A stretch of 64,000 nucleotides of DNA from Minisyncoccota bacterium (GTDB lineage: Bacteria > Patescibacteriota > Minisyncoccia > Phycocordibacterales > GCA-2747955). Positions 6,765-58,636 of the stretch are shown piece after piece; position 1 is the first letter of the stretch, and each line of letters starts with the position of its first letter. The stretch is taken from assembly GCA_020628915.1 (NCBI GenBank), contig JAHDEI010000002.1:7153-71152 (forward strand), in the 5' to 3' direction. The position numbers and the translations under genes are program-made. A model generated the notes under the pieces. The model saw nothing but the letters and a program-made list of their open reading frames with translations, made no database searches and was not told the DNA's origin.

Positions 6765-7631
6765 TTAGTTTTTGTTGTTTGCGGTTGATTTCACTTTCCT
6801 TCGTTTCACAATCATACCGTTTGAGTATTTCTTTGGATTCCTGGTCTTCTGGCCCTTTCCAGATGGCTTACCCCATTTAGTTCGAGCACGCCGATGACCT
6901 CGACCTGCTTTACCTTCACCACCACCATGAGGGTGATCTACTGGGTTCATCGCAGCACCACGTACTCGTGGTCGTCGACCCATTTTCCGAGCTCGACCTG
7001 CTTTACCAATAGTTACCAATTTATGATGTTCGTTTGATGCTTGTCCGATTGTTGCGAAACAATCTTCTGAAACCTTCCTGATTTCAGAAGAAGGCATCTT
7101 CAGGTTTACTTTTCCTTCGTCATGCGCAACCACCTCGATTGCATTTCCAGCAGAACGAGCAAATCGTGCTCCTGCTCCTGGTTTTGCTTCTACAGCAAAT
7201 ACGAATGTACCGACTGGAACATTTTTCAATGCTACTCGGTTACCTGATTTGATTTCAGCTTTTTCAGCGACAATCATTTCGTCTCCTACTACTACTCCTT
7301 TTGGAGTCAGCACGTATCGTCTCTCGCCATCTCGGTAACAGACCAGAGAAATGAATGATGATCTGTATGGATCGTATTCGATTGTTTCGATCTTTGCTGG
7401 GATATCTTTTTTATCGTAAACAAAGTCTACTTGCCTATATTTTCGCTTTACACCACCTCCTCGGAATCTAGAAGTAAGTCGTCCAAATCCGTTTCGACCT
7501 GATGTATTTTTCTTACCTTTGGTAAGAGATTTCTTTGGGTTATTTCCAGTAGATAAAAGTTCCTTGTACGGCACAACCGTCATCCCTCGTCGTCCTGGTG
7601 TTATCCCTTTGTATCGTTTTAGTGCAGCCAT
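6765..7631 (-). CDS. rplB: 50S ribosomal protein L2
   Basis: MAALKRYKGITPGRRGMTV...; 288 aa. Confidence 0.95.
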   Translation of the reverse strand: MAALKRYKGITPGRRGMTVVPYKELLSTGNNPKKSLTKGKKNTSGRNGFGRLTSRFRGGGVKRKYRQVDFVYDKKDIPAKIETIEYDPYRSSFISLVCYRDGERRYVLTPKGVVVGDEMIVAEKAEIKSGNRVALKNVPVGTFVFAVEAKPGAGARFARSAGNAIEVVAHDEGKVNLKMPSSEIRKVSEDCFATIGQASNEHHKLVTIGKAGRARKMGRRPRVRGAAMNPVDHPHGGGEGKAGRGHRRARTKWGKPSGKGQKTRNPKKYSNGMIVKRRKVKSTANNKN

Positions 7632-11828: not shown

Positions 11829-12404
11829 CTACAGCTGAGAATTATGGATACACTCATTAATATATTGTATATATGTGTGTTTATTCTCTTTTATATGGCT
11901 TAAATCTCTCTCATCTGGCATGATCTGGTCAAACATAGTCTCTGGAATTGTCTCAAGAAATTGTTCATCAAAATAGCCTAAGTGCTTTAAAAGCCTGACC
12001 ACGATATAAATTTCATCCAACTCATCAGTCAACATCTCTGGAACGAGTAGCTGACTCAAAAGATGAAATAAATTTTCGTCTTTTTCTTGGCCATGAACTA
12101 AGAGCTCAATCAAGGATATAACGCTACTTACGCTCTTTTTTGAGATATTTTGCTTTCCCAACACTAAATGCCTCTCGTGTTCAATACCTGTCATGCGGAA
12201 ACCCTGTTTTCCTTTTACCAACGAAACCGAAACGAAAGAATAGGGTTGAATCGAAAAACGATGTTTTGATATTTCTTTTCTTGACCCAGAGACGCGGGCA
12301 CCAACAAGACCCAACTCTTTGGTATAAAAACGCACATAGTGATCTGACTCACCTTGTGTTCTTGCAGAGAGCACTAACGCCTGAGTAGTATAAATTTCGT
12401 ACAT
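11829..12404 (-). CDS. recO: DNA repair protein RecO
   Basis: N-terminal OB-fold pattern 'MYEIYTTQALVLSARTQGESDHYVRFYTKELGLVGARVSGSRK' typical of RecO; 191 aa (short form). Confidence 0.7.
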   Translation of the reverse strand: MYEIYTTQALVLSARTQGESDHYVRFYTKELGLVGARVSGSRKEISKHRFSIQPYSFVSVSLVKGKQGFRMTGIEHERHLVLGKQNISKKSVSSVISLIELLVHGQEKDENLFHLLSQLLVPEMLTDELDEIYIVVRLLKHLGYFDEQFLETIPETMFDQIMPDERDLSHIKENKHTYIQYINECIHNSQL

Positions 12405-12458: not shown

Positions 12459-13037
12459 TCATTTAATCAACAAGTGTGGATTCTCGGGATATAACCATCT
12501 GCCAAAAATCTTTTCACAATATTCGTAATTAAATTTTACTACCTCTAACAAAGAGAACAACAAAATCTCCTGGTCGCTCATGTTTGCTTCTTTGACAACT
12601 ACGCATGGGATCGGCGAATGGCCTGGATTCTTCCTGGTGTATTCATTTTGAGCTTGGTAAAACGAGTCACGTCCTTGACCTGAACTTTTACACTGCAGGA
12701 ATAGAAACTCGCGTGAGACCCATTCCGTCTTAATGACTAGGTCTATTTTCATTCGATCAAGTGTTCCCATAGATGGCGCACGTCGCACCCCATTGATCCA
12801 GGGTAATATATCGGACTCTCTGCAGGCATCAAAAATCTCAACGAGTAATTCTTCTCGTCTATAGCCGATAACCTGAGTGTCATTTTCTTTTTGAATTGAT
12901 TCTCGCAGAGCCAACAAATTGTCTTTGCGCTCTTGCGAGAATCGCTGTTCCATTGCTGCACCAATTGCCGTCAGAGCGGCAGTTTTTTCTTTTCTGTTCA
13001 TGAGAACTAATTTTTCTTGGTTCAACATTTCCACCAC
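12459..13037 (-). CDS. hypothetical protein
   Basis: 192-aa ORF, no motif recognised. Confidence 0.5.
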   Translation of the reverse strand: MVEMLNQEKLVLMNRKEKTAALTAIGAAMEQRFSQERKDNLLALRESIQKENDTQVIGYRREELLVEIFDACRESDILPWINGVRRAPSMGTLDRMKIDLVIKTEWVSREFLFLQCKSSGQGRDSFYQAQNEYTRKNPGHSPIPCVVVKEANMSDQEILLFSLLEVVKFNYEYCEKIFGRWLYPENPHLLIK

Positions 13038-13139
13038 TCCTTTCTGATCGCTATCTTAGCACTTTTTTAAAAATATTGACATAGCATTAATTGCATGTCA
13101 CGATACGAATTAGTTTAATTTTAAATTGAGGTGTTCATT

Positions 13140-13517
13140 ATGAATGAAAACATATTAACTCTACTGGCAGTCTCTCTTCTCTGTATTCCCTTCTTTTGTT
13201 GCATATGGGTCAGCGAAAGCAGATTTAAAAAACGCAAAAAAATATGGCGAGAACTCGACGAGATTTGCCGCCAGGAGTCGATAATTAACACGATTATCAC
13301 AAACGAGCTTGGTCACGAAGAACTCAAGCCTTATTTTTATCTCGTTGACGACTTTGCAAACGCCCAAGTCTACCCACTAGCACAAAACATGTGGGGCCCC
13401 ATGGATGAGGATCGCTTCACAGACCGAGTCCGTTCTGCATTTACCGAATGGAAAAGACAATTTGTAGATTCTGGATTACACGAAAAGCGCCTCGAGCTTC
13501 GAGCTGCTCTTCCCTAG
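13140..13517 (+). CDS. hypothetical membrane-anchored protein
   Basis: N-terminal TM 'ILTLLAVSLLCIPFFCCIWV'; start taken at MNENIL. Confidence 0.45.
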   Translation: MNENILTLLAVSLLCIPFFCCIWVSESRFKKRKKIWRELDEICRQESIINTIITNELGHEELKPYFYLVDDFANAQVYPLAQNMWGPMDEDRFTDRVRSAFTEWKRQFVDSGLHEKRLELRAALP

Positions 13518-13545: not shown

Positions 13546-16500
13546 TTATATCTTCTCAATTACTGCTTTGAAGACATGCTCTCTCACCTTTTGTTCGTCG
13601 CTTTCCACCTGGTCGAATGAAAGCTCTTCAATTCCTGCAACCGATTCCAGTTCATCTCTGAAGGCCTCGATTGCATCCTGAACCTCATCTGGAGCATCCA
13701 CAACCAACGATGCACGATCTGATGGTTCCATGCCTGATTTCTTTCTCATTGATTGAATAGCACGAAGTATTTCCCTAAAAAGACCTTCTTGCTCAAGTTC
13801 TGGAGTTAGCTCGGTATCAAGAACTGCAACCTCGTCTTGATTTGAATTAAATAGTACTGATTTGATATTCAACTCGTCTGCAATGATGTTTGTATACACT
13901 GGATCAAGCTCTGCTGACTGTAGCGATACAGACGCAAGCGGCTGCTTCACCTTTATTCCGGCGCTCGCACGTGCCTCCAAACCAGCAGAAACAAGATCCC
14001 GAACTGACTGCATTGTTTCGATCACTGCGTTGTTTTCGGATAACTTAATCTCAGGCCAATCCACCAAATGGACAGATTCTCTGTCTCCTTTTCCTCGCAT
14101 TTGTTGCCAAACATGTTCTGCCAAAAACGGCATGAATGGTGCAATGACTTTTGAAAAATTAATAAGGATGTATCGTGTTGTTGCCAGTGCATACTTTTTA
14201 TCTTCATCGTCAGTTCCTTTAAACCTATCTCTGGAGCGTCTGATATACCACGTTGATACATCATCAACAAAATCCATGAAACATCCACATGCCATATCTA
14301 GTTCGTAGGTATCAAGTTTTTCTGTTGTTTGTTTTTGAACCTCCCTAAATCTCTCGAGAATCCACAAATCAAGAGGATTGGATGCCTCTAGTGCCATATC
14401 ACGTGTGTGTGCGATAGTTTCGTTGTAAAGTTTGTAAAACGAGACGACATTTTTTAATCTGATAACAACCTTTTTATTGATGTCGTCAATTTGTTTTTCT
14501 ACCAAATTAACACTTTCACCTTTAATCAACGGTGACGAAAGCAGGAAGTAGCGCAATGCATCAGCCCCGTGTGTATCCATTACCTGTGATATTGGCGGGT
14601 AATTCTTGAGCTTCTTGGACATCTTTTTTCCATCTTCTGCCATAACCATTCCATGAACAATTACATTCTTGAACGGAGATTTATCAAAGAGACTTGTTCC
14701 AAGAACTAGTAATGAATTAAACCAGCCACGTGTTTGATCTGCCCCTTCACAAATAAAGTCGGCTGGATATTGGAACCCATCTTGATCAAATGGGTAGTGT
14801 TTTGATGCATATGGCATTGATCCTGATTCGTACCAACAGTCAAATACTTCGCCAATAATTTTGTATTCTTCTCCTTTGTCATTAAACCAGGTGATCCCGT
14901 CAATATGTGGCTTGTGAAAATCTAATTCGTACTCTTTGTTGTGTGGGAATCTCGTAAAATCTAAAAACCGCGGCTTTGCGTTATGAACTGTCCCCCAGTG
15001 AGTCCGCAGATCAATTGTCTGATCATGAGTGAGACCATTTGCTCCAGCAAACGATGTCCAGTACGGCGTAAAGTGACTAACTACTACGATGTTTTTTCCT
15101 TCATATTTTGAATCAATGTCATAAAAGAAATCCATCATCCGATGCTTCACCTGCATGATTGACTCTCCTCCTCCAGGCAGCTCTTTGGTCAGATCTTCGT
15201 ATGGTGTGTCCACACCCACATAGTTTAAATATTCATCTCTCGTTTTACCCTCAAGATCGCCAAAAACGATTTCACGAATTCGTTCATCAAAAATAATATC
15301 TTCTTTGTTCACGCCCACTCCCTTTGCAATTATCTCTGCAGTTTGTGTTGTGCGTGTAAATGGCGACGCAATGATGAGGTCTACATCCTCTCCATTGTCT
15401 GCATGAGCAGAACTAATAAGTTCTTTGATCTCGGGAACAGCACCTTCGACTTGTTTCATACCTTCTTTTGAAAGCTTGTCTAAATCACCTCCGGCAACAC
15501 CTGAAATCATTTTTTTAATATTTGATTCTGACTCACCATGTCTAATCAGAATAATGTTATTTGTGGATCGAGTTTTGTTTTTTAATTCAGCAAGTGATCC
15601 AATCACCTCGTGTTCTCCAGTGGTTTGATTTTCCCAAACAGGGATTGGTGCACCCCAAAAACGAGAACGTGAAATTGCCCAATCAACTTTTCCTGAGATC
15701 CAATTATGAAAACGCTTATGCCCCAAATGGTCAGGGACCCAATGCACTTTTGAATTAAGCTCAACCATACGATCAACCAGTGCGTCCGTCTTTTGAACAA
15801 ACCATGAGTCAGTAGCGTAGTTCAGCAAGGGTGTATCACATCTCCAGCAGTGTGGATAGCTGTGCTCGATCTTTTCTTTTGAGAAGAGTTTTCCGTTGTG
15901 TGCCAAATACTTAACGATTTCGATGTCAGTTGCCATGTGGTCCCCTTTTGTTTTCACCTCCATGCCAGCGAAATCAGTTACAGCGTCCACGAATTCTCCT
16001 GCTTTATTTACGTGATGAATTAACGGCAAGTTCATTTGTTTTGCTAATGCAAAGTCTTCGGCACCAAATGCTGGTGCTTCATGGGCAATACCCGTCCCTG
16101 ACTCGTCATCAATAAAGTCTGCTTCATACACTTTCCATCCGTTCTCATGATTTTCAATATTTGTATTGCTAACAAAATAATCAAATGGAGGTACATATTC
16201 CAAACCAACAAGGCCTTTTACATCATCAAACTCTTGTACGATCTCATAGTCCTTGACGTCAGCATGATTCATCACGTCTTCCAGTCGTGCCTTCGCAAGA
16301 ATGTAATTCTCGGTGACACCTTCTTTCGTTGCTCGTACTTTGACGTACTTTACCTCGGGCCCAACGGCGATTGCCACGTTACCGGGCAAGGTCCATGGTG
16401 TCGTCGTCCACGCTAAAATAAACGTTCCTGGTTCGTTTTTGAGTTCAAATTTCGCTGTAACTGAAATATCTTTTATGTCTGCATATCCATCAGCCACCTC

Positions 16501-17100
16501 GTTGTTTGAAAGCGTTGTTTCACATCGTGGACACAAATGCATAGCTTTGAATCCTTTGTAAACAAGACCCTTGTCATACAGTTCTTTAAAAGACCACCAG
16601 ATAGATTCTGTATATGTCGCATCCATCGTCTTGTAGTGGTTTTTCATGTCCACCCATCGCCCCGTTCGGGGGATTATCTGTTCCCAATCTTCTTTGTATT
16701 CCAAAACCTTTCCTCGTGCCTCAGTATTAAACTGTTCAACACCATGTTCCATGATGTCCTTTCGTGAGTTGAGACCGAACTCTTTCTCAACTATGTTTTC
16801 AATAGGAAGACCGTGACAATCCCACCCCCAGTTACGCACCACTTTTTTACCACGCATTGTTTGATAACGTGGAATTACGTCCTTAATTGTCCCTGGCAAT
16901 AAGTGACCATAGTGAGGTTGTCCTGTAGCAAATGGTGGCCCATCATAAAAAACAAAAGGGTCTTCATCTTCGCGCTCGTCAATCGACTTTTTAAAAATTC
17001 CGTTCTTATTCCAAAAATCTAAAACCGCCTCTTCATCTTTGGCGGTCTGAGATACATTGTTTTTATTATTTTGTGTATGTATATCAGACATAGAAACCAT
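13546..17100 (-). CDS. ileS: isoleucyl-tRNA synthetase (type 2) with in-frame inserted histidine-phosphatase (PGAM/SixA-like) domain
   Basis: 'FYDGPPFATGQPHYGH' (HIGH-class), 'WVPDHLGHKRFHNWISGKVDWAISRSRFWGAPIPVW', 'KMSKKLKNYP' (KMSKS-class); 1184 aa. aa ~512-718 carry 'LIRHGESESN', 'ASPFTRTTQTAEII' and 'VVVSHFTP'. Confidence 0.93.
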   Translation of the reverse strand: MVSMSDIHTQNNKNNVSQTAKDEEAVLDFWNKNGIFKKSIDEREDEDPFVFYDGPPFATGQPHYGHLLPGTIKDVIPRYQTMRGKKVVRNWGWDCHGLPIENIVEKEFGLNSRKDIMEHGVEQFNTEARGKVLEYKEDWEQIIPRTGRWVDMKNHYKTMDATYTESIWWSFKELYDKGLVYKGFKAMHLCPRCETTLSNNEVADGYADIKDISVTAKFELKNEPGTFILAWTTTPWTLPGNVAIAVGPEVKYVKVRATKEGVTENYILAKARLEDVMNHADVKDYEIVQEFDDVKGLVGLEYVPPFDYFVSNTNIENHENGWKVYEADFIDDESGTGIAHEAPAFGAEDFALAKQMNLPLIHHVNKAGEFVDAVTDFAGMEVKTKGDHMATDIEIVKYLAHNGKLFSKEKIEHSYPHCWRCDTPLLNYATDSWFVQKTDALVDRMVELNSKVHWVPDHLGHKRFHNWISGKVDWAISRSRFWGAPIPVWENQTTGEHEVIGSLAELKNKTRSTNNIILIRHGESESNIKKMISGVAGGDLDKLSKEGMKQVEGAVPEIKELISSAHADNGEDVDLIIASPFTRTTQTAEIIAKGVGVNKEDIIFDERIREIVFGDLEGKTRDEYLNYVGVDTPYEDLTKELPGGGESIMQVKHRMMDFFYDIDSKYEGKNIVVVSHFTPYWTSFAGANGLTHDQTIDLRTHWGTVHNAKPRFLDFTRFPHNKEYELDFHKPHIDGITWFNDKGEEYKIIGEVFDCWYESGSMPYASKHYPFDQDGFQYPADFICEGADQTRGWFNSLLVLGTSLFDKSPFKNVIVHGMVMAEDGKKMSKKLKNYPPISQVMDTHGADALRYFLLSSPLIKGESVNLVEKQIDDINKKVVIRLKNVVSFYKLYNETIAHTRDMALEASNPLDLWILERFREVQKQTTEKLDTYELDMACGCFMDFVDDVSTWYIRRSRDRFKGTDDEDKKYALATTRYILINFSKVIAPFMPFLAEHVWQQMRGKGDRESVHLVDWPEIKLSENNAVIETMQSVRDLVSAGLEARASAGIKVKQPLASVSLQSAELDPVYTNIIADELNIKSVLFNSNQDEVAVLDTELTPELEQEGLFREILRAIQSMRKKSGMEPSDRASLVVDAPDEVQDAIEAFRDELESVAGIEELSFDQVESDEQKVREHVFKAVIEKI

Positions 17101-17155
17101 TATATCGTCTCGAGCTTAATCTACCAAGAAAAAAGACCAGGCAAGTTGCTTGGTC

Positions 17156-17527
17156 TTACCATGGCATAACTTCGTAAACATACCGTTTGCCATCAATAAT
17201 CATTGTCGCCTTTTCATAAAACTGAGCCTCTCGAGTTGTCATCTTCTCAGCCACCAAAGCAGGTTCACCGAACATGGTATTGATGTAATGATATGGATCA
17301 AAATCAATAACCTTGGCCGAGTGATCCTTTGGTAGCCAGAGTGGTCTCTTTTTTCTGAGATACAAGAAGTTATTAAACTGCAATACGCTTGACCCCTGCC
17401 TGTTTAAAACTGGCCCACCTTTTTTAGCAAACGCTATCAAATCTTCTTTCTGAGAGTGCTCCATAAACCAAGGAAGTCCAGAAAGAATTTTTGTGACCTG
17501 TGGTATGGACATAACTATTCTTTGCAT
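17156..17527 (-). CDS. hypothetical protein
   Basis: 123 aa; SD-like AAAAGGGGA upstream; preceded by a long structured leader (see findings). Confidence 0.5.
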   Translation of the reverse strand: MQRIVMSIPQVTKILSGLPWFMEHSQKEDLIAFAKKGGPVLNRQGSSVLQFNNFLYLRKKRPLWLPKDHSAKVIDFDPYHYINTMFGEPALVAEKMTTREAQFYEKATMIIDGKRYVYEVMPW

Positions 17528-17810: not shown

Positions 17811-19478
17811 CTACATTCGCTCAACTACATCAATTCCTAAAAGATCAAGACCCTTTTGTAGAGTGGTCGCAACTGCCTGAGTCAAAGCAACATTATACGC
17901 AAAATCAGAATTTGCCTCATCAGCAATTTTGGTCTCTGCATAAAACGAATTAAACGATTGTGCTAATTCATAAACATACTGAGCAACATGGTGCGGTGAA
18001 TAGTCTTTGAGAGACTTTTGGATTGATTCTGGGAAACGCTCGAGTAGGCGTGCTACGTCAGGAACGACTGACGGAATGGGCACTTCGTTTGGTTTTTTTA
18101 TTTTGTCTAAAATAGATTTTGTTCTGACGTACGTATATTGAATATATGGGCCTGAATTTCCTTCAAATGACAATGACTTTTCAAAATCAAATACCATATC
18201 CTTCCCCATCGAACTTTTAAGTAACGCATACCTGAGTGCACCAATTGCAACAGCACGTGCAACATCTTTTTTGTCAGACTCATCGATATCTCGATCTTTC
18301 ATTTTTTCAAATACGTTTGCCTCAACACCTGCAATGAGGTCTTCGGCAAGCGGGACATTTCCATGACGTGAAGATATCTTTCCACTCGTCAAAGACAATC
18401 GACCGTGCTGTAGAAACAAAGACTTCTCTTCCCATTCAGGATTAATGAGACCTGATGATTTTGCCACTAACTGAAAATGTTGTTTCTGTTCCATATCCGT
18501 AACATACACCGACCTATCAAACGGTGCATACCGATCAAATTTATGCCACACCAGACCAAGATCCTTTGCTAAATACGTACCAAAACCATCTGAGTTAATA
18601 AAAACATTATCAAATAATCCATAGTCAGAACCCCTAAAAATAATTGCGCCGTCTGATTTCTCGAATACATTATTGATATGTCCATTCACCAACTCTTTTC
18701 CTTTTACCTCTGATTCGGTCTCAAAGATAATGCCATCAAATGTTGTCCCGAGATCTGCAACCATATCTTGAAAATATTTAAGGGAAAATTCAGTTCCTTT
18801 TTGGTACAAATCGTACTCAGTACTGTCTGTTTTGTTATAAATTTTTCTATTGATCTCGTGGATTGTTTCTTTAACCTTTTCATTCTCTTTGTATTGGGTT
18901 GACCCGTGTGCATATGCCTCACCTACTTGCTCGATGGTAAATCCGTCTGTCCAACCCTTGTCCATCAAACCCCATACAGCCTTTGCAATTCCTGGGCCAA
19001 TATCAGATGGGAAAGAAAGCTCTAAGACTTCTGCCCCAGATGCTTTAAAAATATGAGTAAGTGAATTCCCCATCGCATTATTCACGAGATGCCCAATATG
19101 AAATGGTTTGAATAAATTGGGCGAGCTATGTTCTACCAGCCACCTTTGCCCCTTCAGCTTATCAATTGTTCCCCACGAAGCATCAATAGATTCAAGTTGT
19201 TTTTTCCAGTAGGCATTAGTCAGCGTAAGATTAATAAAACCAGGACCAGCAACCTGGGCTTTCTCGACAGAATCATTTGAGATATTCTCAAGGACTTTTG
19301 CAGCAACTTCTTGTGGGTTAAGTCCATTCTTTTTCGCATACGCCAGTGCACTAGTACACGCCCAATCCCCGTGAGACATGTCCTGTGGATGTTCAATATG
19401 CACATCGGCACCCAACTCAAATCCTGCATCAGAAAACGCTTTATTGAGTAGATAGATAATTGCCTGTTTGCTGTTCAT
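17811..19478 (-). CDS. argS: arginyl-tRNA synthetase
   Basis: 'FKPFHIGHLVNNAMGNSL' HIGH motif in ArgRS context, DALR-type C-terminus; 555 aa. Confidence 0.93.
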   Translation of the reverse strand: MNSKQAIIYLLNKAFSDAGFELGADVHIEHPQDMSHGDWACTSALAYAKKNGLNPQEVAAKVLENISNDSVEKAQVAGPGFINLTLTNAYWKKQLESIDASWGTIDKLKGQRWLVEHSSPNLFKPFHIGHLVNNAMGNSLTHIFKASGAEVLELSFPSDIGPGIAKAVWGLMDKGWTDGFTIEQVGEAYAHGSTQYKENEKVKETIHEINRKIYNKTDSTEYDLYQKGTEFSLKYFQDMVADLGTTFDGIIFETESEVKGKELVNGHINNVFEKSDGAIIFRGSDYGLFDNVFINSDGFGTYLAKDLGLVWHKFDRYAPFDRSVYVTDMEQKQHFQLVAKSSGLINPEWEEKSLFLQHGRLSLTSGKISSRHGNVPLAEDLIAGVEANVFEKMKDRDIDESDKKDVARAVAIGALRYALLKSSMGKDMVFDFEKSLSFEGNSGPYIQYTYVRTKSILDKIKKPNEVPIPSVVPDVARLLERFPESIQKSLKDYSPHHVAQYVYELAQSFNSFYAETKIADEANSDFAYNVALTQAVATTLQKGLDLLGIDVVERM

Positions 19479-19508: not shown

Positions 19509-20318
19509 CTACGCGGGAACTTTTGATGTTTTTTCTCGAAAAGATGAAAACTTTTCCTCAAGTGATCCTTGAGGCTTCAATCTCTTGTTCGTCTCAACGA
19601 AAGACAGCAAGTTATAACCCATGCGTATCGCATGCGGATCACGGATGCGATCGTGGATCATGTCCATCATTGTGTGCATGTCATGTCTGATTAAATTCAG
19701 GCGACCAGCCTTGTAATGGACAGGAAAAGACCGTTTCATTCTTTCTTTCAATCCAGCGAATAACGTACACTTTTTAATCTTCAGTCGCCCATCCAGCATT
19801 GAAACAACATAGGCGCGACCGTCTGAATTAAAATAATACATATAACAATCCTCATTCGGCAATGCGACCAATGCTTGATTATCAGGCCTCTTTAGTTCGC
19901 GAGCACCACCATGAGATACCACATGTGTTGAAAATAATTCTTCTGATTCTTCTTCAAAAGAGAGTACAACATAGCAGCCATCTCCGCGATACTTGTGCGC
20001 TCGAATCAGTCCGTCTTCCGGATCTTGTTCAAGGCGACAAGCTGTTACAAAATATGTGCGTGGCTCCGGCGTGTCCCACTCTGGCAGGTCTCGATATCCA
20101 TCTTTGGTGCAAATAATCACAGCCTTACGTGAAGGTAAACTTGGCTCTTGTTGACCAAAGCCTACCATGCTTTTGAATTTACTAACTCGATTAAAATAAA
20201 TACCTGGAGACAATGTTTCATCAACTGAATTATATCGGTATACATTTGTCTCATACTCTTCGTCTTGCAGGTGTCTAATAGTAGAGCCCATACAACACTT
20301 CTCCTTTTCAAAGTTCAA
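19509..20318 (-). CDS. hypothetical protein (GC-richer than surroundings)
   Basis: 269-aa ORF; probable start at MGSTIRHL (20291); terminator hairpin aagttccc-tacg-cgggaactt at ~19485-19507. Confidence 0.5.
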   Translation of the reverse strand: MNFEKEKCCMGSTIRHLQDEEYETNVYRYNSVDETLSPGIYFNRVSKFKSMVGFGQQEPSLPSRKAVIICTKDGYRDLPEWDTPEPRTYFVTACRLEQDPEDGLIRAHKYRGDGCYVVLSFEEESEELFSTHVVSHGGARELKRPDNQALVALPNEDCYMYYFNSDGRAYVVSMLDGRLKIKKCTLFAGLKERMKRSFPVHYKAGRLNLIRHDMHTMMDMIHDRIRDPHAIRMGYNLLSFVETNKRLKPQGSLEEKFSSFREKTSKVPA

Positions 20319-20411: not shown

Positions 20412-21677
20412 TTATACATGCGAATCTGGAATCGGGAATTGGTTACACAACCCTAGAATCTCTTCCCTCACTCTATCTTTTGTTTCTTGATTATCTTTAT
20501 CGCGCAGAACCTCAATCATTAGCTCAGCAACTTTTGCACACTCCTCTTCACCAAACCCCCTGGTTGTAATCGCTGGTGTCCCAAATCGGATTCCTGATGG
20601 ATCCATCGGCCCTCTCGGATCGTCCGCAATTGAGTTTTTGTTTAAGGTAATTCCAACTTCGTCTAAAACATTCTGTGCATCTTTTCCTGAAATATCGAGG
20701 GCTGTTAGATCTGCAAGCAACAGATGGTTGTCTGTCCCTCCACCCATTAATCGGACGCCTTCCCGTAGGAACACAGCCTCCATTGCCTTTGCATTGAGCA
20801 AGACTTGTTTTGCGTACACTTCAAATTTTGGAGACAGTGCCTCTCCAAATGCCACTGCCTTTCCAGCAATCTGGTGCATATGTGGACCTCCCTGCAGTCC
20901 TGGGAATACTGCTGAGTTAATCTTTTTATACATGTCGGCATCGTCTCGGACCAAAATCATCCCACCTCGTGGACCACGTAGTGTCTTGTGTGTAGTAGTA
21001 GTAATAATGTCGAAACCAGCATCAAATGGATTAGCTAATGCCTTCCCAGCGATGAGCCCTGCAATATGTGCCATATCAGCAACAGTGATTGCCCCAACCT
21101 CTTTTGCGATTTCCACGAATTTCTCATACGGTAGCTCTCGGGAATACGCAGAGAATCCCGCAAGAATAATTTTTGGTTTTTCTTTCAATGCTACTTCTCG
21201 CAATTCATCAAAATCGATTTCACCTGTATCAGGGTCCTTCATTTTGTAGGTAACAAAATTGTAGATCTTGGCAGGATGGGTCGCAGGATGTCCGTGTGTT
21301 AAATGCCCCCCATGTGATAGGTCCATCCCCAGAACAGTGTCTCCTGGTTTCAGTAGTGCAGAGTACACGGCTAGATTTGCAGGTGCTCCTGAAAGTGATT
21401 GGACGTTCGCGAATTTACATCCAAATAGTTCGCACGCTCGATCCTGCGCAATACGCTCTACCGCATCTGTAAAATCTTGACCTCCATAGTATCGCTTGCC
21501 TGGATATCCTTCTGAGTATTTATTTTGAAAGACTGACCCGTTTGCCTCAAACACTGCACGCGAAACATAATTCTCTGATGGAATTAGTTCAAGCCCTGTT
21601 GCCTCACGATTCTCTTCTCCTATTAGTGCGTCGTAGACGTCCTGATCCTGATCTTTGATGTATTTATATTCCTGCAT
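20412..21677 (-). CDS. glyA: serine hydroxymethyltransferase
   Basis: 'LELIPSENYVSRAV', 'YSEGYPGKRYYGG', PLP-Lys region 'TTTTHKTLRGPRGG'. Confidence 0.95.
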   Translation of the reverse strand: MQEYKYIKDQDQDVYDALIGEENREATGLELIPSENYVSRAVFEANGSVFQNKYSEGYPGKRYYGGQDFTDAVERIAQDRACELFGCKFANVQSLSGAPANLAVYSALLKPGDTVLGMDLSHGGHLTHGHPATHPAKIYNFVTYKMKDPDTGEIDFDELREVALKEKPKIILAGFSAYSRELPYEKFVEIAKEVGAITVADMAHIAGLIAGKALANPFDAGFDIITTTTHKTLRGPRGGMILVRDDADMYKKINSAVFPGLQGGPHMHQIAGKAVAFGEALSPKFEVYAKQVLLNAKAMEAVFLREGVRLMGGGTDNHLLLADLTALDISGKDAQNVLDEVGITLNKNSIADDPRGPMDPSGIRFGTPAITTRGFGEEECAKVAELMIEVLRDKDNQETKDRVREEILGLCNQFPIPDSHV

Positions 21678-22444: not shown

Positions 22445-23761
22445 TTAGTTCTTATTTTTTTCTACCAATATCAAAAAGTTTTTGAAGAGTGACACAACGG
22501 TTAGAGGACCAATTCCTCCTGGCGAACGACTAAACAAACGTGCCTTCTCGCTGCAACCCCAATCTATGTCCCCTCTCAATGATCCAGACGAGCCAGATGT
22601 TCCTCCATCAAAGAGAATCGATCCTTCTTTAATCATCTCTGGTGTCACCAGATCTGAGACACCCGCACCTGAGACAATAATGTCTGCCGCCAAAGCCTGA
22701 TCAGTAAATTCTGTGTCTTCTTTGTCCACCGAATCAACGTTCGCACCCTTATGTTCAAAATATGTAATCGATGGACCGCCAACCAATTTCCCTCTACCGA
22801 TAACAAGAATATTTTTACCTGCGGGATTAAGATTGTAATGATCGATAATCTCATCAATGGCAGATACCACCGGAGGCAATACGGTCATATCCCCTCCAAT
22901 AAATGTGGCCATCGTTTGCTGGTTAAGGAGATCGGGATCTTTTATTGGTGGAATTAAGTTGCAAATTTTGTCTCGATCAATATGGTTGGGCAGCGGTAAT
23001 TGAATCACAACGCCATCTAAACTATCCAAGTTGTCTTTTATATGCTGCTCTAGCTCATTCTCGGTCACTGACATTTCGAATAAAAACTCTTTAAAATCCA
23101 CACCAATGCGTCCGGCCAGCTCTCTTTTTTTCTTAACATACATTCGTGTTGCAGCATCCTGTCCCACCACATAAATTCCCAATGTTGGTTTTTCATCCAA
23201 ATTTTCTACCTGCTCAATCAGTCGGTCTTCTAGTGCGACTGCCAACTCTTTTCCACTGACAACTACCCTTTTTTCATAAATCGAAAAATTAATATTGTAT
23301 TCGTTCTTTTCATCAGCTGGCCTGTAAGTTCGTGATGTTCGAACCCAGTCAGATATCAGATTGCCTGGAAATAAAATGTCACCCTCCACCTCAGCATCAA
23401 TATGTGTCACATACGCACGATCAACCAAGTCGTTCTCGAGTGCGTATTTATAAATGCCCGATCCTCCAAAAATAAATACTTCTCCAGTTTCTTCTTTTTG
23501 TGCAACCTCGATCCCCTCTTCTACAGAACCTACGACGACGCTCCCGAAGGGAGCGTTGTATCCAGAATCTCTTGTCACAATGATATTCAATCGCCCTGGC
23601 AGTGGCTTTCCAATTGATTCAAACGTTTTGCGCCCCATAACCAATGGATGTCCCATTGTAGTTTTCTTGAGATATGCAAAATCCGCTGGCAGATGCCATG
23701 GAATTTCTGAGCCATTTCCAATGACCCAATTTTTATCACATCCTACAATTAACGAAATCAT
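22445..23761 (-). CDS. bifunctional fusion: dihydrofolate reductase (N-terminal) + methylene-THF dehydrogenase/methenyl-THF cyclohydrolase FolD (C-terminal)
   Basis: N-terminal ~165 aa 'MISLIVGCDKNWVIGNGSEIPWHLPADFAYLKKTTMGHPLVMGRKTFESIGKPLPGR' = DHFR. C-terminal part has 'VIQLPLP', 'GRGKLVGGP' and 'GGIGPLTV' = FolD. Confidence 0.85.
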   Translation of the reverse strand: MISLIVGCDKNWVIGNGSEIPWHLPADFAYLKKTTMGHPLVMGRKTFESIGKPLPGRLNIIVTRDSGYNAPFGSVVVGSVEEGIEVAQKEETGEVFIFGGSGIYKYALENDLVDRAYVTHIDAEVEGDILFPGNLISDWVRTSRTYRPADEKNEYNINFSIYEKRVVVSGKELAVALEDRLIEQVENLDEKPTLGIYVVGQDAATRMYVKKKRELAGRIGVDFKEFLFEMSVTENELEQHIKDNLDSLDGVVIQLPLPNHIDRDKICNLIPPIKDPDLLNQQTMATFIGGDMTVLPPVVSAIDEIIDHYNLNPAGKNILVIGRGKLVGGPSITYFEHKGANVDSVDKEDTEFTDQALAADIIVSGAGVSDLVTPEMIKEGSILFDGGTSGSSGSLRGDIDWGCSEKARLFSRSPGGIGPLTVVSLFKNFLILVEKNKN

Positions 23762-23763
23762 TC

Positions 23764-24783
23764 TTATTTCTTTTTAAAATCTTTTGCATCGAACCCGCCT
23801 ACATTAGCAATAGGTGCCCTAATTGTTCCATGTGGATCGTACCCTTTTAATTCAAAATCTTCGAATACAAAATCATCGATTTCTTTTTTATCCGGATTAA
23901 TCTTCATTTGTGGGAAGTCTTTTGCCTCTCGGGATAATTGCTCGTCTACTTGATCAAAATGATCTGAATAGACATGTGCGTCGCCAAAGAAATGTACGAA
24001 TTCACCTGGCTCTAAACCTGCACATTGCGCAACCATCTGTAGCAACAAAGCGTAACTAGCAATATTAAACGGAACACCCAGGAACACATCTGCACTTCTC
24101 TGGAATAATGCGAGATTCAGTCTGTCATTCACTACAGTAAATTGGTATGTCGTGTGACAAAATGGCGGAACCTCATTTTTATTTTTCTCAGATGCCATAT
24201 GGTAAATAAAATCAGGATTCCATGCTGAGACAACATACGACTTTCGGTATGGTTTTGCGCGCAGCCCATCAATCACATATTGCAACTGATCAATCTCACG
24301 ACCGTCTGACGCCGGCCACTTTCGCCACATTCGACCATAAATTGTCACGAGGTCTCCCCACTGTTTTACAAAATCAGAATCTGCGTCTTCTTCTTTTAGT
24401 TGTGCAATGAACTCTTTCTGAGTTGGAACCTCAATATCATTTTCAATACAATGCTTTCTATAACGTTTATGTGCCCATTCATCCCAAATATGAACATCAT
24501 TATCAACTAGGTACTTAATATTAGAATCACCTTTCAGAAACCACAGTAACTCAATAATAATCCCTCGAGTAAAGACCTTTTTGGTTGTCAGTAATGGGAA
24601 TCCATCTTTCAAATCAAATCTCATCATATGGCCAAACACAGATTTAATGTATGGAGCCTCTTTCCCCTCTGCCTCATATTGTGCCAGCACCTCAGGAGTA
24701 AAAAAGACTGGCTTTTTCCATCCCTCATCTTTAATCTTTGTGAGTAAATCTAAGTATTGTTGTTCTCCTTTATTCATATGCAT
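23764..24783 (-). CDS. thyA: thymidylate synthase
   Basis: 'RMWRKW', 'VPPFCHTTYQF' (active-site Cys), 'SADVFLGVPFNIASYALLLQMVA'; 339 aa with an insert after 'HIWDEW'. Confidence 0.92.
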   Translation of the reverse strand: MHMNKGEQQYLDLLTKIKDEGWKKPVFFTPEVLAQYEAEGKEAPYIKSVFGHMMRFDLKDGFPLLTTKKVFTRGIIIELLWFLKGDSNIKYLVDNDVHIWDEWAHKRYRKHCIENDIEVPTQKEFIAQLKEEDADSDFVKQWGDLVTIYGRMWRKWPASDGREIDQLQYVIDGLRAKPYRKSYVVSAWNPDFIYHMASEKNKNEVPPFCHTTYQFTVVNDRLNLALFQRSADVFLGVPFNIASYALLLQMVAQCAGLEPGEFVHFFGDAHVYSDHFDQVDEQLSREAKDFPQMKINPDKKEIDDFVFEDFELKGYDPHGTIRAPIANVGGFDAKDFKKK

Positions 24784-25211: not shown

Positions 25212-25826
25212 TTATGTACGTAAAAATTCTCCTAATGCTTGTAATGATTTTTCCTTTACCTCTTCGATGGTGCCGCTTGCATCAATAATTGCGTGAGGTA
25301 ATTTCTGGATATGCTCTTTATATCCATCACGAGCTCTTTCAAAAAAGCTTGCATCAAAGTGGTCAAATGAATTGATGTTGTCACTACGTTGCTCGAGTCG
25401 CTCTTTTCTAATTTCAACGGGAATATCGTAAAAGAGACAAAAATCTGGCTGCATCTCACCCAATACGGTATTGCTCAAATAATCTGCAAGGTGCTCCAGA
25501 TCGTGACGTTCACGTGCATGAATTTGATACGCATATGTTGTCAGCTCGTTTCTGTTTGAAACTACCGTCTTTCCCTCTGCTAACGCTGGAATAATAACTC
25601 TATTCATTAATTCTTTTCGCGCTGCGTAAAAAAGCAGAATCTCTGTGATTGGATCAAGCTCGTTTCCGGTAATAACATCGCGCAACACAACCCCAATTTG
25701 GGTCCCTCTTGGCTCTCGAGTATACACAGTATCTGCGGGCAAAATTTCCTTAAGAAACTCTTCTTGCGTGTCTTTTCCTGCGCCATCAACACCTTCGATA
25801 ACAATATATGTACCTTTTCTACTACT
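25212..25826 (-). CDS. tmk: thymidylate kinase
   Basis: P-loop 'IVIEGVDGAGKDTQ', 'REPRGT'; start set at MSSRKGTY (25826) because the terminator hairpin 25845-25866 occupies the longer ORF's 5' extension. Confidence 0.88.
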   Translation of the reverse strand, partial: SSRKGTYIVIEGVDGAGKDTQEEFLKEILPADTVYTREPRGTQIGVVLRDVITGNELDPITEILLFYAARKELMNRVIIPALAEGKTVVSNRNELTTYAYQIHARERHDLEHLADYLSNTVLGEMQPDFCLFYDIPVEIRKERLEQRSDNINSFDHFDASFFERARDGYKEHIQKLPHAIIDASGTIEEVKEKSLQALGEFLRT

Positions 25827-25844
25827 CATAGTTGTACAAGTATA

Positions 25845-25866
25845 GCAAAATAAAAACGCGACCTTT
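25845..25866 (-). terminator. intrinsic terminator (aacgcgacc-tttc-ggtcgcgtt)
   Basis: Downstream of minus-strand gene 25883..26296. Confidence 0.65.
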
Positions 25867-25882
25867 CGGTCGCGTTGCACAT

Positions 25883-56679: not shown

Positions 56680-57087
56680 GGGGATGACGGGCTTTGACAA
56701 TTTAGTTTCGAACTTTGTGCAATGCGACTTTTCCAGGTTTCGTAAAAAACTGGGATACCTTTACGTGCAAACGCTAAAGACAACGCGGTGGCTAGCCCAT
56801 ACGCACCTGCATTTGCTTTTGCTTAAGAGTTGAGCCTTTTGGCTCCTCGATGTAGGCGGTTTTCGTGATAGGTGCTAAGACTACACGTTAGCTGTTATCT
56901 TGCTTAGCTAGTGAATATGTGGCTGCTTCATATTCATGAAATCACACGCAGCTGGTTTTTCTAGAGTTTTGATTAATTTATATCTAGGAAAATAAGATGA
57001 TTCCCTAGGGAATCAAAAATTACTCTATCATTGTAGAGTCAATTTCTCGGACTATCTTGGACGGGGGTTCAACTCCCCCCTTCTCCA
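56680..57087 (+). ncRNA. ssrA: tmRNA (SsrA)
   Basis: 5' 'GGGGAUGACGGGCUUUGAC...UUCGAAC', pseudoknot PK1 'CCAGGUUUCGUAAAAAACUGGG'. Tag reading frame GCA AAC GCU ... UAA at 56767-56826 (ANAKDNAVASPYAPAFAFA). 3' 'GGACGGGGGUUCAACUCCCCC-CUUCUCC-A' forms the T-arm and a 7-bp acceptor stem with G3.U wobble and discriminator A; CCA not fully encoded. Confidence 0.85.
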
Positions 57088-58636
57088 CATCAAGGGTGTC
57101 ACTGTCACCTAATCGCTCAAAAAGCCTTAAAATTACAGTCTTTTCAGGGGTTCGATAACCGTTTTCTTTGTCATATCTCAGATTCGCTTCAAAAAAGAAC
57201 GGAAACACCTCATGTTTTTGTTCGAGATTTCCTGTAACCCATAGCTGATAAGGGTTTCTCATCATTTCTAATACTTCATCTAGAGCGTTCCGATAAGGTT
57301 TTTCAAGATCTGGTTTTTTACTCTTCTTTTCCTCAATAAGAGCTAATTTTTGTGCATCCTCCTCCATCCGTAAAGACAATCTATCTTTTACTGCATCAGA
57401 AGTCTTTGGATCAATCAACATATCTTCAATACGCCTTAGACTCTCTTGAATGCTTTCTCCTTGCTTCTCAAGGCTTAAAATGCGTTTGTCTAGGTTCTTA
57501 AACTCATCTTTCCAGTATGTATCAAACATATACTTTATAAGCTCTTCGAACTCTTGTTTTGACTTCAGTGAGCACGTGAACTCTTCAAATCCCTTATGAA
57601 GGTCATCCCTCCTAATACTCTTGTTCTTAAATGGACAATCAGGAGTGTATTTGCACTCGTAGTAGTAATAATAATCCCCATGTCGACCTTTCGATTTATA
57701 CCCCGTTAACTTGCGTCCACAATGAGAACAATTCACCAAACCTCGTAAGGGAAAATCTGGATTAAGATCCATTCGTGAATAACGGGTATTTGACTCCTTG
57801 TTTAGTCGCTTTTGAATAGCCTCAAAAGTTTCCAAGCCAATAAGTGGTTCATGTTTTCCTTTTACCATCTTCACTTCCCATTTTGGATAATCAATATATC
57901 CTGCGTAAAACACATTAGTAAGCATCGCCTTGATGGTTTTCAAATATTTCTCAGACTTATGTCGAGGTAATTTCCCTTTTTGTGGGAAAAAATCTTTTGA
58001 CAACAGAAAATCTACCACATCCACCTGCTTTGCAAACCTTCGTGAAGCAAAACCTTCCAAAGCTTCCTTAATACTCTTTGCATCTTTGTTTGGGTGACAT
58101 AGCTTCCCATACTCTTCGGTTTTTATCATCTCGTATCCCTTTGGAGCATGAAATGACCACAAACCTCTCTCTAAACGTGCTTTTTGTTTCTGAACCACCT
58201 GTCTTTTATTTTGCTTTCGCTCTAACTCACCTTGAGCAGCAATTATAATCTCAACGAATTCTCCTTCTGGAGTATCTTCAAAGTTAAAGTTGAGACACTG
58301 GACTTCTGTGCTCGTCGATCTAAATTGTTGCCGCAACTTTAAATGAGCAACAGTGTCTCTGGCAAGTCGCTTCAAGTCATCGAAAACGACAACGTAATCT
58401 TCATGAATATTTGTCTCAAGATACTCAATCAACTCTCTCATGGCGGGACGACCCATAAAATCACCGCCTCCAGTAAAACTATCTCTGAATACATCCACCA
58501 CTTGGTAATCCTTCCTTGTGCAGTAATCTCTACATCGTTTTTCTTGTGATTCTAATCCTGATCCTTCCGTTCTTTGCTTGTCAGTTGATACTCGGCAATA
58601 AATCAGTGCTCTTTTTTTTGTTTTAATATTACTCAT
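57020..58636 (-). CDS. large serine recombinase (resolvase domain + recombinase domain + zinc ribbon + coiled coil)
   Basis: 'ALIYCRVSTDKQ' catalytic-Ser motif, 'GYIDYPKWEV', Cys-rich 'CSHCGRKL...YYYYECKYTPDC'; C-terminal ~20 codons overlap the tmRNA 3' end on the opposite strand ('GGVEPP' is the T-arm read backwards). Confidence 0.85.
   Translation of the reverse strand: MSNIKTKKRALIYCRVSTDKQRTEGSGLESQEKRCRDYCTRKDYQVVDVFRDSFTGGGDFMGRPAMRELIEYLETNIHEDYVVVFDDLKRLARDTVAHLKLRQQFRSTSTEVQCLNFNFEDTPEGEFVEIIIAAQGELERKQNKRQVVQKQKARLERGLWSFHAPKGYEMIKTEEYGKLCHPNKDAKSIKEALEGFASRRFAKQVDVVDFLLSKDFFPQKGKLPRHKSEKYLKTIKAMLTNVFYAGYIDYPKWEVKMVKGKHEPLIGLETFEAIQKRLNKESNTRYSRMDLNPDFPLRGLVNCSHCGRKLTGYKSKGRHGDYYYYYECKYTPDCPFKNKSIRRDDLHKGFEEFTCSLKSKQEFEELIKYMFDTYWKDEFKNLDKRILSLEKQGESIQESLRRIEDMLIDPKTSDAVKDRLSLRMEEDAQKLALIEEKKSKKPDLEKPYRNALDEVLEMMRNPYQLWVTGNLEQKHEVFPFFFEANLRYDKENGYRTPEKTVILRLFERLGDSDTLDVEKGGVEPPSKIVREIDSTMIE

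Follow-up and report, generated by a model that had tools for sequence, protein, structure and literature searches.

The 64,000-nucleotide stretch of DNA analysed here (the window; positions 7,153 to 71,152 of contig JAHDEI010000002.1, assembly GCA_020628915.1) comes from a Minisyncoccota bacterium of the Patescibacteria and carries an ileS gene whose product, isoleucyl-tRNA synthetase (IleRS), has a histidine phosphatase domain nested within it. Few enzymes are as highly conserved as the aminoacyl-tRNA synthetases; their catalytic core seldom gains new parts, and such gains tend to be informative. Here we describe the gene and its inserted domain, trace both across related genomes, and weigh what the phosphatase may contribute to an enzyme that charges tRNA.

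The ileS gene and its nested domain

The reading frame of ileS is unbroken over all 1184 amino acids (aa) in the open reading frame (ORF) list of the window. Its features are given below, with residues numbered as in the window protein and Rossmann halves, connective peptide (CP) modules and SC-fold named as in other IleRS; conservation refers to an alignment of 119 homologues unless another sample is named.

13546..17100, minus strand: complete ileS including the nested phosphatase, 1184 aa (ORF list; ATG start; stop codon 13546..13548)
15583..17100, minus strand: IleRS aa 1-506, with the first Rossmann half, CP core, CP1 editing domain (~aa 205-415), CP2 and the start of CP3 (HMMER alignment to 8c8u residues 5-474)
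16903..16917, minus strand: HIGH signature motif PHYGH, aa 62-66 (translation; conserved across the homologues)
15652..15690, minus strand: CP2-CP3 linker KVDWAISRSRFWG, W-x-ISR-x-R-x-WG, aa 471-483 (translation)
14944..15582, minus strand: nested branch-1 histidine phosphatase, aa 507-719, within CP3 (PF00300; borders from the HMMER alignment to 8c8u)
15535..15543, minus strand: RHG motif with R520, H521 (predicted phospho-acceptor nucleophile) and G522 (R 118/119, H 119/119, G 117/119)
15352..15354, minus strand: R583, second phosphate-binding arginine, in motif SPFTRTTQTAEI (SPFxRTxQTAEI; conserved 118/119)
15271..15273, minus strand: E610, predicted general acid/base (conserved 118/119)
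15073..15075, minus strand: H676, second active-site histidine (VVVSH; conserved 119/119)
14401..14943, minus strand: IleRS aa 720-900, with the remainder of CP3 (ELDFHKPHID...), second Rossmann half and SC-fold (alignment resumes at 8c8u residue 480)
14611..14625, minus strand: KMSKS-type signature loop KMSKK, aa 826-830 (translation; K826 and K829 invariant)
13933..14370, minus strand: anticodon-binding helical domain, aa 911-1056 (PF08264, 8.3e-32)
13558..13824, minus strand: C-terminal tRNA-binding region of the type-2 kind (DUF5915), aa 1093-1181 (PF19302, 2.7e-18)

Several lines of evidence identify the host protein. Scored as a whole it reaches 847 bits against the NCBIfam ileS equivalog TIGR00392, passing the cutoff of 621.4, and it falls under the cutoff of each of the valS, leuS and metG models. 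In Pfam the tRNA-synt_1 match (2e-127) is split in two by His_Phos_1, and Anticodon_1 and DUF5915 come after. An AlphaFold2 (AF2) model of the full protein, computed with the 119 homologues as input, has a predicted local distance difference test score (pLDDT) of 92.1 and a predicted template-modelling score (pTM) of 0.85, and Foldseek superimposes it on solved type-2 or eukaryote-like IleRS with template-modelling (TM) scores of 0.82-0.90, including 8c8v, in which the C-terminal domain is resolved. The best match is IleRS2 of Priestia megaterium (8C8U/8C8V; 701 bits, TM 0.82), a type-2 enzyme of the mupirocin-resistant type, which shares the signature motifs and the order Rossmann, CP core, CP1 editing, CP2, CP3, SC-fold, anticodon-binding domain and DUF5915-type C-terminus. 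Within the CP2-CP3 linker W474, S477, R478, R480, W482 and G483 are invariant, as are the residues of the CP1 editing site, namely W231-T-T-T-P-W-T-L-P239 including T232-T234, together with H340 and D349; the isolated Thermus thermophilus editing domain 1wk8 aligns with aa 205-417. On the evidence of its sequence the window protein is thus almost certainly the type-2 isoleucine-tRNA ligase that the cell ordinarily uses, and the motifs of the synthetic site, the editing site in CP1 and the domain that binds the anticodon are all intact. Two more specific identities were rejected. The model for IleRS bearing a GNAT domain (NF040702) gives 328.8 bits against a cutoff of 1999, with no GNAT match in Pfam, and those for the mupirocin-resistant enzymes MupA and MupB (NF000257 and NF000258) give 641 and 690 bits against a cutoff of 1900, a resemblance that reflects shared type-2 IleRS ancestry and nothing beyond.

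The alignment with 8c8u also fixes the position of the insert. Query residues 15-506 pair with chain residues 5-474 of this best solved relative, and query residue 720 then pairs with chain residue 480, so that about 213 residues in the window protein stand in for about 5 in the P. megaterium enzyme. Alignment with the yeast and Candida enzymes places the equivalent break at about residue 493-497, inside CP3, the limits of which are 459-526 in yeast IleRS (ScIleRS; PMC7955072) and 473-534 in Candida IleRS (CaIleRS; PMC7191050). The topology of CP3 varies among IleRS, and the Ca, Tt and Sa enzymes differ from one another in it (PMC7191050). Just before CP3, the yeast linker 453-ARDWNVSRNRYWG-465 lines the pocket for the tRNA CCA end and reveromycin A (PMC7955072). 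The window linker KVDWAISRSRFWG (aa 471-483) is homologous to it, and the insertion point lies, in sequence, some 24 residues downstream of this CCA-pocket linker.

The inserted segment matches His_Phos_1 (PF00300) over aa 516-699 with E=4.5e-27 and 95.4 bits against a gathering cutoff of 21.7, covering profile positions 1-170 of 194. In the full AF2 model its pLDDT is 88-97, save for a cap segment near 620-640, and modelled by itself it gives a pLDDT of 90.5 and a pTM of 0.89. The fold is of the alpha/beta phosphoglycerate-mutase-like kind (Foldseek probability 1.00, TM 0.67-0.74, 19-30% identity, E down to 4e-14), with PspA (4ij5/4ij6), GpgP (4pz9) and PhoE (1h2e) among the top matches (E=4e-14..1e-11) along with a riboflavin-pathway phosphatase (9mmh) and dPGMs. 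Linkers to CP3 measure at most 5 residues in the model, with helix 503-510 leading into strand 515-520 and a last strand at 711-713 before the exit; such short linkers imply a fixed orientation of the phosphatase relative to the synthetase.

R520, H521, N527, R583, E610 and H676 are all present, and each is retained in 116-119 of the 119 homologues. Over several hundred copies in the IleRS sets the R, H, R, E and H residues are 96-100% conserved. The remainder of the domain is far less constrained, the insert having drifted to a mean identity of 41% with the window copy whereas the catalytic parts of IleRS stand at 58-67%. Retention of the catalytic residues while the rest of the domain drifts argues for selection on catalysis. 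The simplest reading of these patterns is that phosphatase and synthetase would both be active, and we regard the architecture together with catalytic competence as very probable.

The preliminary description of this locus had already noted one uninterrupted 1184-aa frame at 13546..17100 on the minus strand with the IleRS hallmarks PHYGH, WxISRxRxWG and KMSKK, all of which were located by translation, and had recognised three histidine phosphatase motifs in the insert, which correspond to the RHG motif, to R583 in SPFTRTTQTAEI and to H676 in VVVSH. The bounds it proposed, 14947..15567 (aa 512-718), fall inside the 14944..15582 (aa 507-719) obtained from the borders at query 506/720, and its expectation of a short linker at this site holds for the roughly 5 residues of 8c8u within CP3. 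The profile match to His_Phos_1 with tRNA-synt_1 flanks (2e-127), and the well-ordered alpha/beta fold predicted for the insert alone, are the outcomes of checks that it had proposed. Its label 'PGAM/SixA-like' stands in part: the domain is of branch 1 and has a PGAM-like fold, but the SixA model TIGR00249 gives only 23.1 bits against a cutoff of 74.5. Other equivalogs tried with the insert alone also fell short, with dPGM (NF038349) at 81.4 bits against 225, CobC (TIGR03162) at 76.6 against 162.9 and PspA (NF045917) at 57.7 against 350; the score for GpmB lies under its curated cutoff too, and the best NCBIfam match, RNase H/acid phosphatase NF005567, reaches 85.9 against 326. Judged by its sequence, the insert is a superfamily member nearer PhoE, PspA and CobC than SixA that reaches no curated equivalog cutoff. 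PhoE (1H2E), PspA (4IJ5), GpgP (Rv2419c, 4PZ9) and CobC have the same capped fold of about 200 aa and the same R-H-G/N/R/E/H set. They are, however, free-standing enzymes unrelated to translation to which the insert is 19-30% identical, and where usual branch-1 enzymes have H-G after the second histidine the insert has E/D/F-x-P.

Distribution of the phosphatase among synthetases

The nested arrangement recurs widely. PF00300 and IleRS domains occur together in 120 of the 120 closest protein clusters, down to 47% identity; the named sources of these clusters are metagenome-assembled genomes (MAGs) of Patescibacteria, Paceibacteria, Campbellbacteria or Minisyncoccota, and the annotations go no further than 'class I tRNA ligase family protein', 'hypothetical protein' or 'isoleucyl-tRNA synthetase'. 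When an alignment spanning the junctions was run against GTDB, with each species represented by a single genome, it matched at least 600 stretches; of the 600 listed, 599 were confirmed as encoding a relative of the query. The best 80 were examined, and all 80 match over both junctions and the insert. Represented among these 80 loci are Minisyncoccia and the Taylor-, Kaiser-, Nomura-, Yonath-, Vogel- and Lloydbacteria, and one locus lies on a closed Nomurabacteria chromosome of 0.99 Mb; the nearest genome among the matches listed, with 83% identity, is a MAG of 'Candidatus Pacebacteria'. The nested phosphatase is therefore a class-wide trait of Paceibacteria IleRS, not a peculiarity of the window genome.

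This distribution also disposes of trivial explanations. The frame is continuous, G+C is even across the insert (0.39-0.44) with no discontinuity, and the same architecture is found in more than 100 independent assemblies, which rules out the frameshift, misjoin or gene-calling chimera that the preliminary description had raised as a concern; nothing was found in favour of such an artefact fusing two genes, and its probability is negligible. Joining of two genes end to end is ruled out as well, since IleRS sequence lies on both sides of the insert.

To place the domain more broadly, a profile of the insert was compared with 1.84 billion representative proteins, yielding 422 matches at E<=1e-30, of which the best 150 were classified. 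Among these, 105 lie within IleRS, 3 within ValRS and 42 have no synthetase flank; save for Sua5, no unrelated host protein is represented. The free-standing homologues are about 190 aa long and start at their own Met. In all four whose genomic context was examined (P0147, P0182, P0183 and P0219), the gene sits 1-17 nt upstream of an unfused ileS, and the order at the loci L081, L085, L087 and L088 is argS, phosphatase, ileS, a small ORF and recO. These unfused ileS genes encode 931-984 aa, and the two that were scored against TIGR00392 gave 689 and 903 bits. The corresponding neighbours in the window are as follows.

17811..19478, minus strand: argS, upstream syntenic neighbour of ileS (Pfam)
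11829..12404, minus strand: recO, downstream syntenic neighbour of ileS (RecO_N)

The window thus shares the argS-ileS-recO synteny and has no separate phosphatase gene because the domain sits inside ileS. The unfused IleRS at L081 shares no more than 30-33% identity with the window protein, which indicates that the association of phosphatase and IleRS spans divergent IleRS lineages. This L081 gene (2709-5663) passes TIGR00392 at 689 bits, yet its signature regions are unusual in pairwise alignment, with '...SMGVHHAWGRT' at the HIGH position, 'GDEMHKSAGN' at the KMSKS position and 'FPGQFKNWFYS' for G-x-DQTRGWF.

CP3 is one of at least five distinct insertion sites in IleRS. In window numbering the others lie at ~730-760, where a second copy is found inside CP3; at ~770-790, after the SGSMPYA loop; at ~890-930, between the SC-fold and the anticodon-binding domain; and at ~440-450, in CP2. 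Such proteins carry two to four copies. In four IleRS of other lineages (P0131, P0143, P0146 and P0181) the sites used are not that of the window but the one following the SGSMPYA loop and the one that separates SC-fold from anticodon-binding domain; P0131 has three copies by eye, and the first copy of P0143 has RHA, not RHG. The 1325-aa protein P0040 (MFC1801975.1, Patescibacteria), annotated at source only as 'GNAT family N-acetyltransferase', combines a GNAT domain (Acetyltransf_3, aa 285-415) in CP1 with a phosphatase (aa 664-827) in CP3.

The same domain is carried by ValRS of Peregrinibacteria/Gracilibacteria. Of the 117 closest ValRS clusters 70 have it, in one to three copies, and the range is one to four once P0254, P0121 and P0270 are counted with them. 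One of these hosts, P0254, is a bona fide valS (849 bits). Some ValRS copies have no residue equivalent to E610 or H676. In P0254, P0121, P0270 and the cluster matches one copy occupies the CP3-equivalent site after WWGHxIPVW and others lie in CP2; about 280 aa of P0254 between two phosphatase copies (roughly aa 630-910) have no Pfam match at E<=1e-4.

Two rarer partners were also found. Sua5/TsaC, the adenylate-forming enzyme of t6A synthesis, is joined to the phosphatase domain in four clusters, and a tyrS of archaeal type is closely preceded by a tandem phosphatase pair, with a GNAT gene in the vicinity. The order in this second arrangement (L089:794-4890 and L090) is a GNAT gene, a small ORF, a 410-aa tandem double phosphatase (P0190), a 109-aa phosphatase fragment and tyrS, which scores 392 bits as the archaeal type (NF006330). 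Sua5/TsaC (PF01300) has many fusion partners in Patescibacteria, of which MGMT (PF01035) is by far the commonest; the list also takes in NUDIX, GNAT, TruB, methylpurine glycosylase (MPG) and 2H cyclic phosphodiesterase (PF07823/PF13563). In sum, it is established, or very nearly so, that the phosphatase subfamily is specific to Patescibacteria and occurs either nested in IleRS and ValRS, at several loops and in one to four copies, or as a separate gene abutting ileS.

Candidate functions of the nested phosphatase

Our reading of these patterns is that the subfamily is specialised to accompany class-I synthetases, IleRS most of all, and has been recruited repeatedly. Adjacency or nesting combined with repeated recruitment exceeds what chance would produce and argues for a functional link, although we judge a functional coupling of phosphatase to synthetase, of whatever kind, to be evenly balanced between true and false. 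The form of it that we favour, with a confidence that stops somewhat short of even, is an active accessory phosphatase that works in conjunction with the synthetase and whose likeliest class of substrate is a tRNA end or a nucleotide. The phosphatase would then be a functional accessory acting on a phosphorylated ligand bound by the synthetase, not a passenger. By the chemistry of the family the phosphoryl group would pass from the substrate to H521, after which the phospho-histidine would be hydrolysed; R520, R583 and H676 would hold the phosphoryl group and E610 would protonate.

The substrate we prefer within this class is a tRNA in which a phosphate blocks the 3′-terminal ribose. Such a phosphate could be the 3′-phosphate left by an opened 2′,3′-cyclic end, or could belong to a (pyro)phosphorylated CCA end, for example one bearing a toxin-added pyrophosphate. 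The preliminary description had suggested cyclic-phosphate tRNA ends and nucleotide turnover as possible roles, and both would fit the present findings. The synthetase body would provide tRNA recognition, and the flexible CCA end, which shuttles between the synthetic and editing sites, might also sample a third pocket in the phosphatase, so that charging would be restricted to tRNA with free 2′/3′-OH. A tRNA end is favoured because the partners are all tRNA enzymes, because the companion fusions of the phylum include RNA-end and nucleotide-processing enzymes (2H, TruB, NUDIX and GNAT on Sua5), and because the insert is near the CCA pocket in sequence. T4 Pnkp, through its phosphatase domain, and the 2H cyclic phosphodiesterases do the job hypothesised here, clearing a 3′-terminal phosphate for reuse of tRNA. 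They offer a functional analogy only, as the fold and chemistry of T4 Pnkp (HAD) and the 2H enzymes are unrelated to those of the histidine phosphatases. The tRNA 3′ end as the substrate is unlikely, perhaps the case in somewhat under one instance out of four; slightly less likely still is the full proposal that the nested phosphatase forms a third active site on tRNA, performing end repair or 'readiness proofreading' before charging in IleRS and in the ValRS of sister lineages.

A number of observations weigh against the coupled reading and its tRNA form. The conserved columns of the insert are those of the generic family core, and no additional conserved surface was seen in the 119-sequence alignment. 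Net charge is about neutral (a domain median of about -1, with -8 for the window copy) and is uninformative on RNA binding. The insert has a cap region of the sort usual in phosphatases of small molecules, and the structures closest to it are those of enzymes acting on metabolites. To our knowledge, no enzyme of the histidine phosphatase superfamily dephosphorylates RNA ends. A single precise geometry is hard to square with so many insertion sites and with a copy number that varies, and if tRNA repair were a general need there is no obvious reason for IleRS and ValRS alone to serve it. Caution is also due because Patescibacteria freely fuse unrelated small enzymes, Sua5-MGMT being an example, and because operon adjacency to ileS is by itself no proof of shared function; in particular, the promiscuous fusion of Sua5 to unrelated enzymes in this group weakens any Rosetta-stone inference.

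Several of these points lend themselves to a different account, in which the domain is a metabolic phosphatase or mutase (acting on phosphoserine, as a phosphoglycerate mutase, or broadly in the manner of PhoE) needed for the cell's own metabolism, and rides as a passenger. It would have become nested from an adjacent gene during genome compaction, gaining co-expression and stability with no tie to charging. The closest solved structures (PspA, GpgP, PhoE and the riboflavin-pathway 9mmh) fit such an origin, as does conservation of the generic catalytic core only, and unrelated housekeeping enzymes are very often fused in Patescibacteria (Sua5-MGMT, Sua5-MPG). The ancestral gene directly upstream of ileS would be a simple source, and the window holds serine and one-carbon genes (SHMT, ThyA and DHFR-FolD). 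A passenger would not, however, be expected to keep such company: the subfamily is almost confined to class-I synthetases, with 108 of the 150 classified matches embedded in IleRS or ValRS and four of the four free genes examined adjoining ileS. Independent insertions at five or more internal loops of two synthetases, in two to four copies, are hard to attribute to chance relocation, whereas a simple N-terminal fusion, the easiest read-through product of an upstream gene, was not seen; moreover, the curated cutoffs for dPGM, PspA, CobC and GpmB were all missed. We consider the passenger account less likely than not, yet a strong rival, with more weight than any other alternative to functional coupling.

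Another account makes the domain a clearer of products for adenylate-forming enzymes. If it hydrolysed pyrophosphate, AMP or another nucleotide released at the synthetase, it could pull activation forward or recycle nucleotides during editing by IleRS and ValRS, which is costly in ATP, and many insertion sites and variable copy numbers would suit a diffusible substrate. IleRS, ValRS, the neighbouring TyrRS and Sua5/TsaC all form an acyl-adenylate and release pyrophosphate and then AMP, and within the superfamily the branch-2 AppA and PPIP5K phosphatase domains cleave phosphoanhydrides. Branch-1 enzymes, to which the insert belongs, are not known as pyrophosphatases, however, and tethering would bring little kinetic gain for a small product that diffuses fast. 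Destruction of AMP would be costly where purines cannot be made, and the presence of the domain on only some synthetases is left without explanation. Such clearing of products is improbable.

P0040, with GNAT and phosphatase in one IleRS, and the GNAT gene near the tandem phosphatase-tyrS cluster raise the question of whether the two domains share a protective role, in which the phosphatase would reverse an inhibitory phosphorylation of the synthetase or a partner, or detoxify a phosphorylated inhibitor. The superfamily includes the protein phosphatases SixA, PGAM5 and Sts-1, GNATs of the RimL/MccE type detoxify aminoacyl-nucleotide antibiotics, and HipA-type kinases phosphorylate and inhibit GltX and TrpS, which provides a model for the kind of damage to be reversed; additional copies would reinforce a guard function. 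Defence traits are usually patchy and fast-evolving, however, whereas this insertion is class-wide and stable. Neither a toxin kinase directed at IleRS or ValRS nor a phosphorylated compound that inhibits them is known to us, and no evident toxin gene adjoins ileS in the window. Protection is less probable again than product clearing. Least credible of the biological alternatives, and close to dismissible, is a module with no catalysis (a structural or allosteric CP3 appendage like other class-Ia insertions, or a phosphate- or tRNA-binding pad), for which the variability of CP3, the most variable IleRS subdomain (PMC7191050), and the ValRS copies that have lost E610- or H676-equivalents could be cited, but which does not account for the IleRS copies, several hundred in all, in which catalytic residues are kept at 96-100% although identity elsewhere in the domain is ~41%.

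Precedents, implications and surrounding genes

Other class-Ia synthetases likewise carry modules in the surface loops of the second Rossmann half, as in the zinc-binding CP3 of T. thermophilus IleRS and the leucine-specific domain of LeuRS. Those modules are small and non-enzymatic, in contrast to the window insert, which is a whole enzyme with a conserved active site. A curated precedent for an enzyme nested in IleRS exists in the N-acetyltransferase-bearing IleRS of NF040702, although both the inserted enzyme and its site differ from those of the window. The Rv2228c-type RNase H/acid phosphatase (NF005567) resembles the present case in that a branch-1 phosphatase is joined to an enzyme of nucleic acids, but there the joining is end to end and the partner is RNase H. 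Within the same phylum a 2H phosphoesterase is fused to Sua5, as the histidine phosphatase sometimes is. A full-text search of the literature found no description of an IleRS with a nested histidine phosphatase; the component families are known, and it is their nested combination for which no description was found.

The pattern suggests that in the candidate phyla radiation (CPR) the charging of tRNA is linked with a removal of phosphate that has so far gone unrecognised, or at the least that the two enzymes are obligately paired. Whatever the substrate, either a new function of a synthetase or a new substrate class for the histidine phosphatase superfamily would follow, and if tRNA were that substrate the domain would be the first RNA-directed member of the superfamily. 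Genetics is not yet possible in CPR organisms; their proteins, however, can readily be expressed, which opens the hypothesis to direct tests in vitro. Entries now annotated 'hypothetical protein' or 'class I tRNA ligase family protein' would be corrected.

Around ileS and argS four ORFs have no Pfam match: 12459..13037 (minus strand), 13131..13517 (plus strand), 17156..17527 (minus strand) and 19509..20318 (minus strand). The third of these, of 123 aa, lies between argS and ileS and fills the slot taken by the free phosphatase gene in the unfused lineages. Directly upstream of the ileS start, at 17101..17160 on the minus strand, GACCAAGCAACTTGCCTGGTC followed by TTTTTT resembles an imperfect terminator hairpin by eye. 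Rfam and tRNA scans near ileS returned no T-box and no tRNA gene, the only hit being a tmRNA 40 kb away.

The window otherwise holds ordinary Patescibacteria housekeeping genes, among them those for EF-Tu, ribosomal proteins, ArgRS, PheRS, gyrase A, LepA, FtsH and Rel, as well as the tmRNA gene and a folate/thymidylate cluster. This compact cluster centres on a 438-aa DHFR-FolD fusion at 22445..23761 (minus strand), with DHFR_1 at aa 1-164 and FolD (THF dehydrogenase/cyclohydrolase) at aa 169-435, flanked by thyA (23764..24783) and SHMT (20412..21677), with thymidylate kinase at 25212..25880. The tmRNA gene (56680..57090, plus strand; Rfam 111 bits) encodes the tag AKDNAVASPYAPAFAFA, and its 3′ end overlaps the end of a 538-aa large serine recombinase ORF (57020..58636, minus strand), an overlap that suggests an element integrated at the tmRNA gene.

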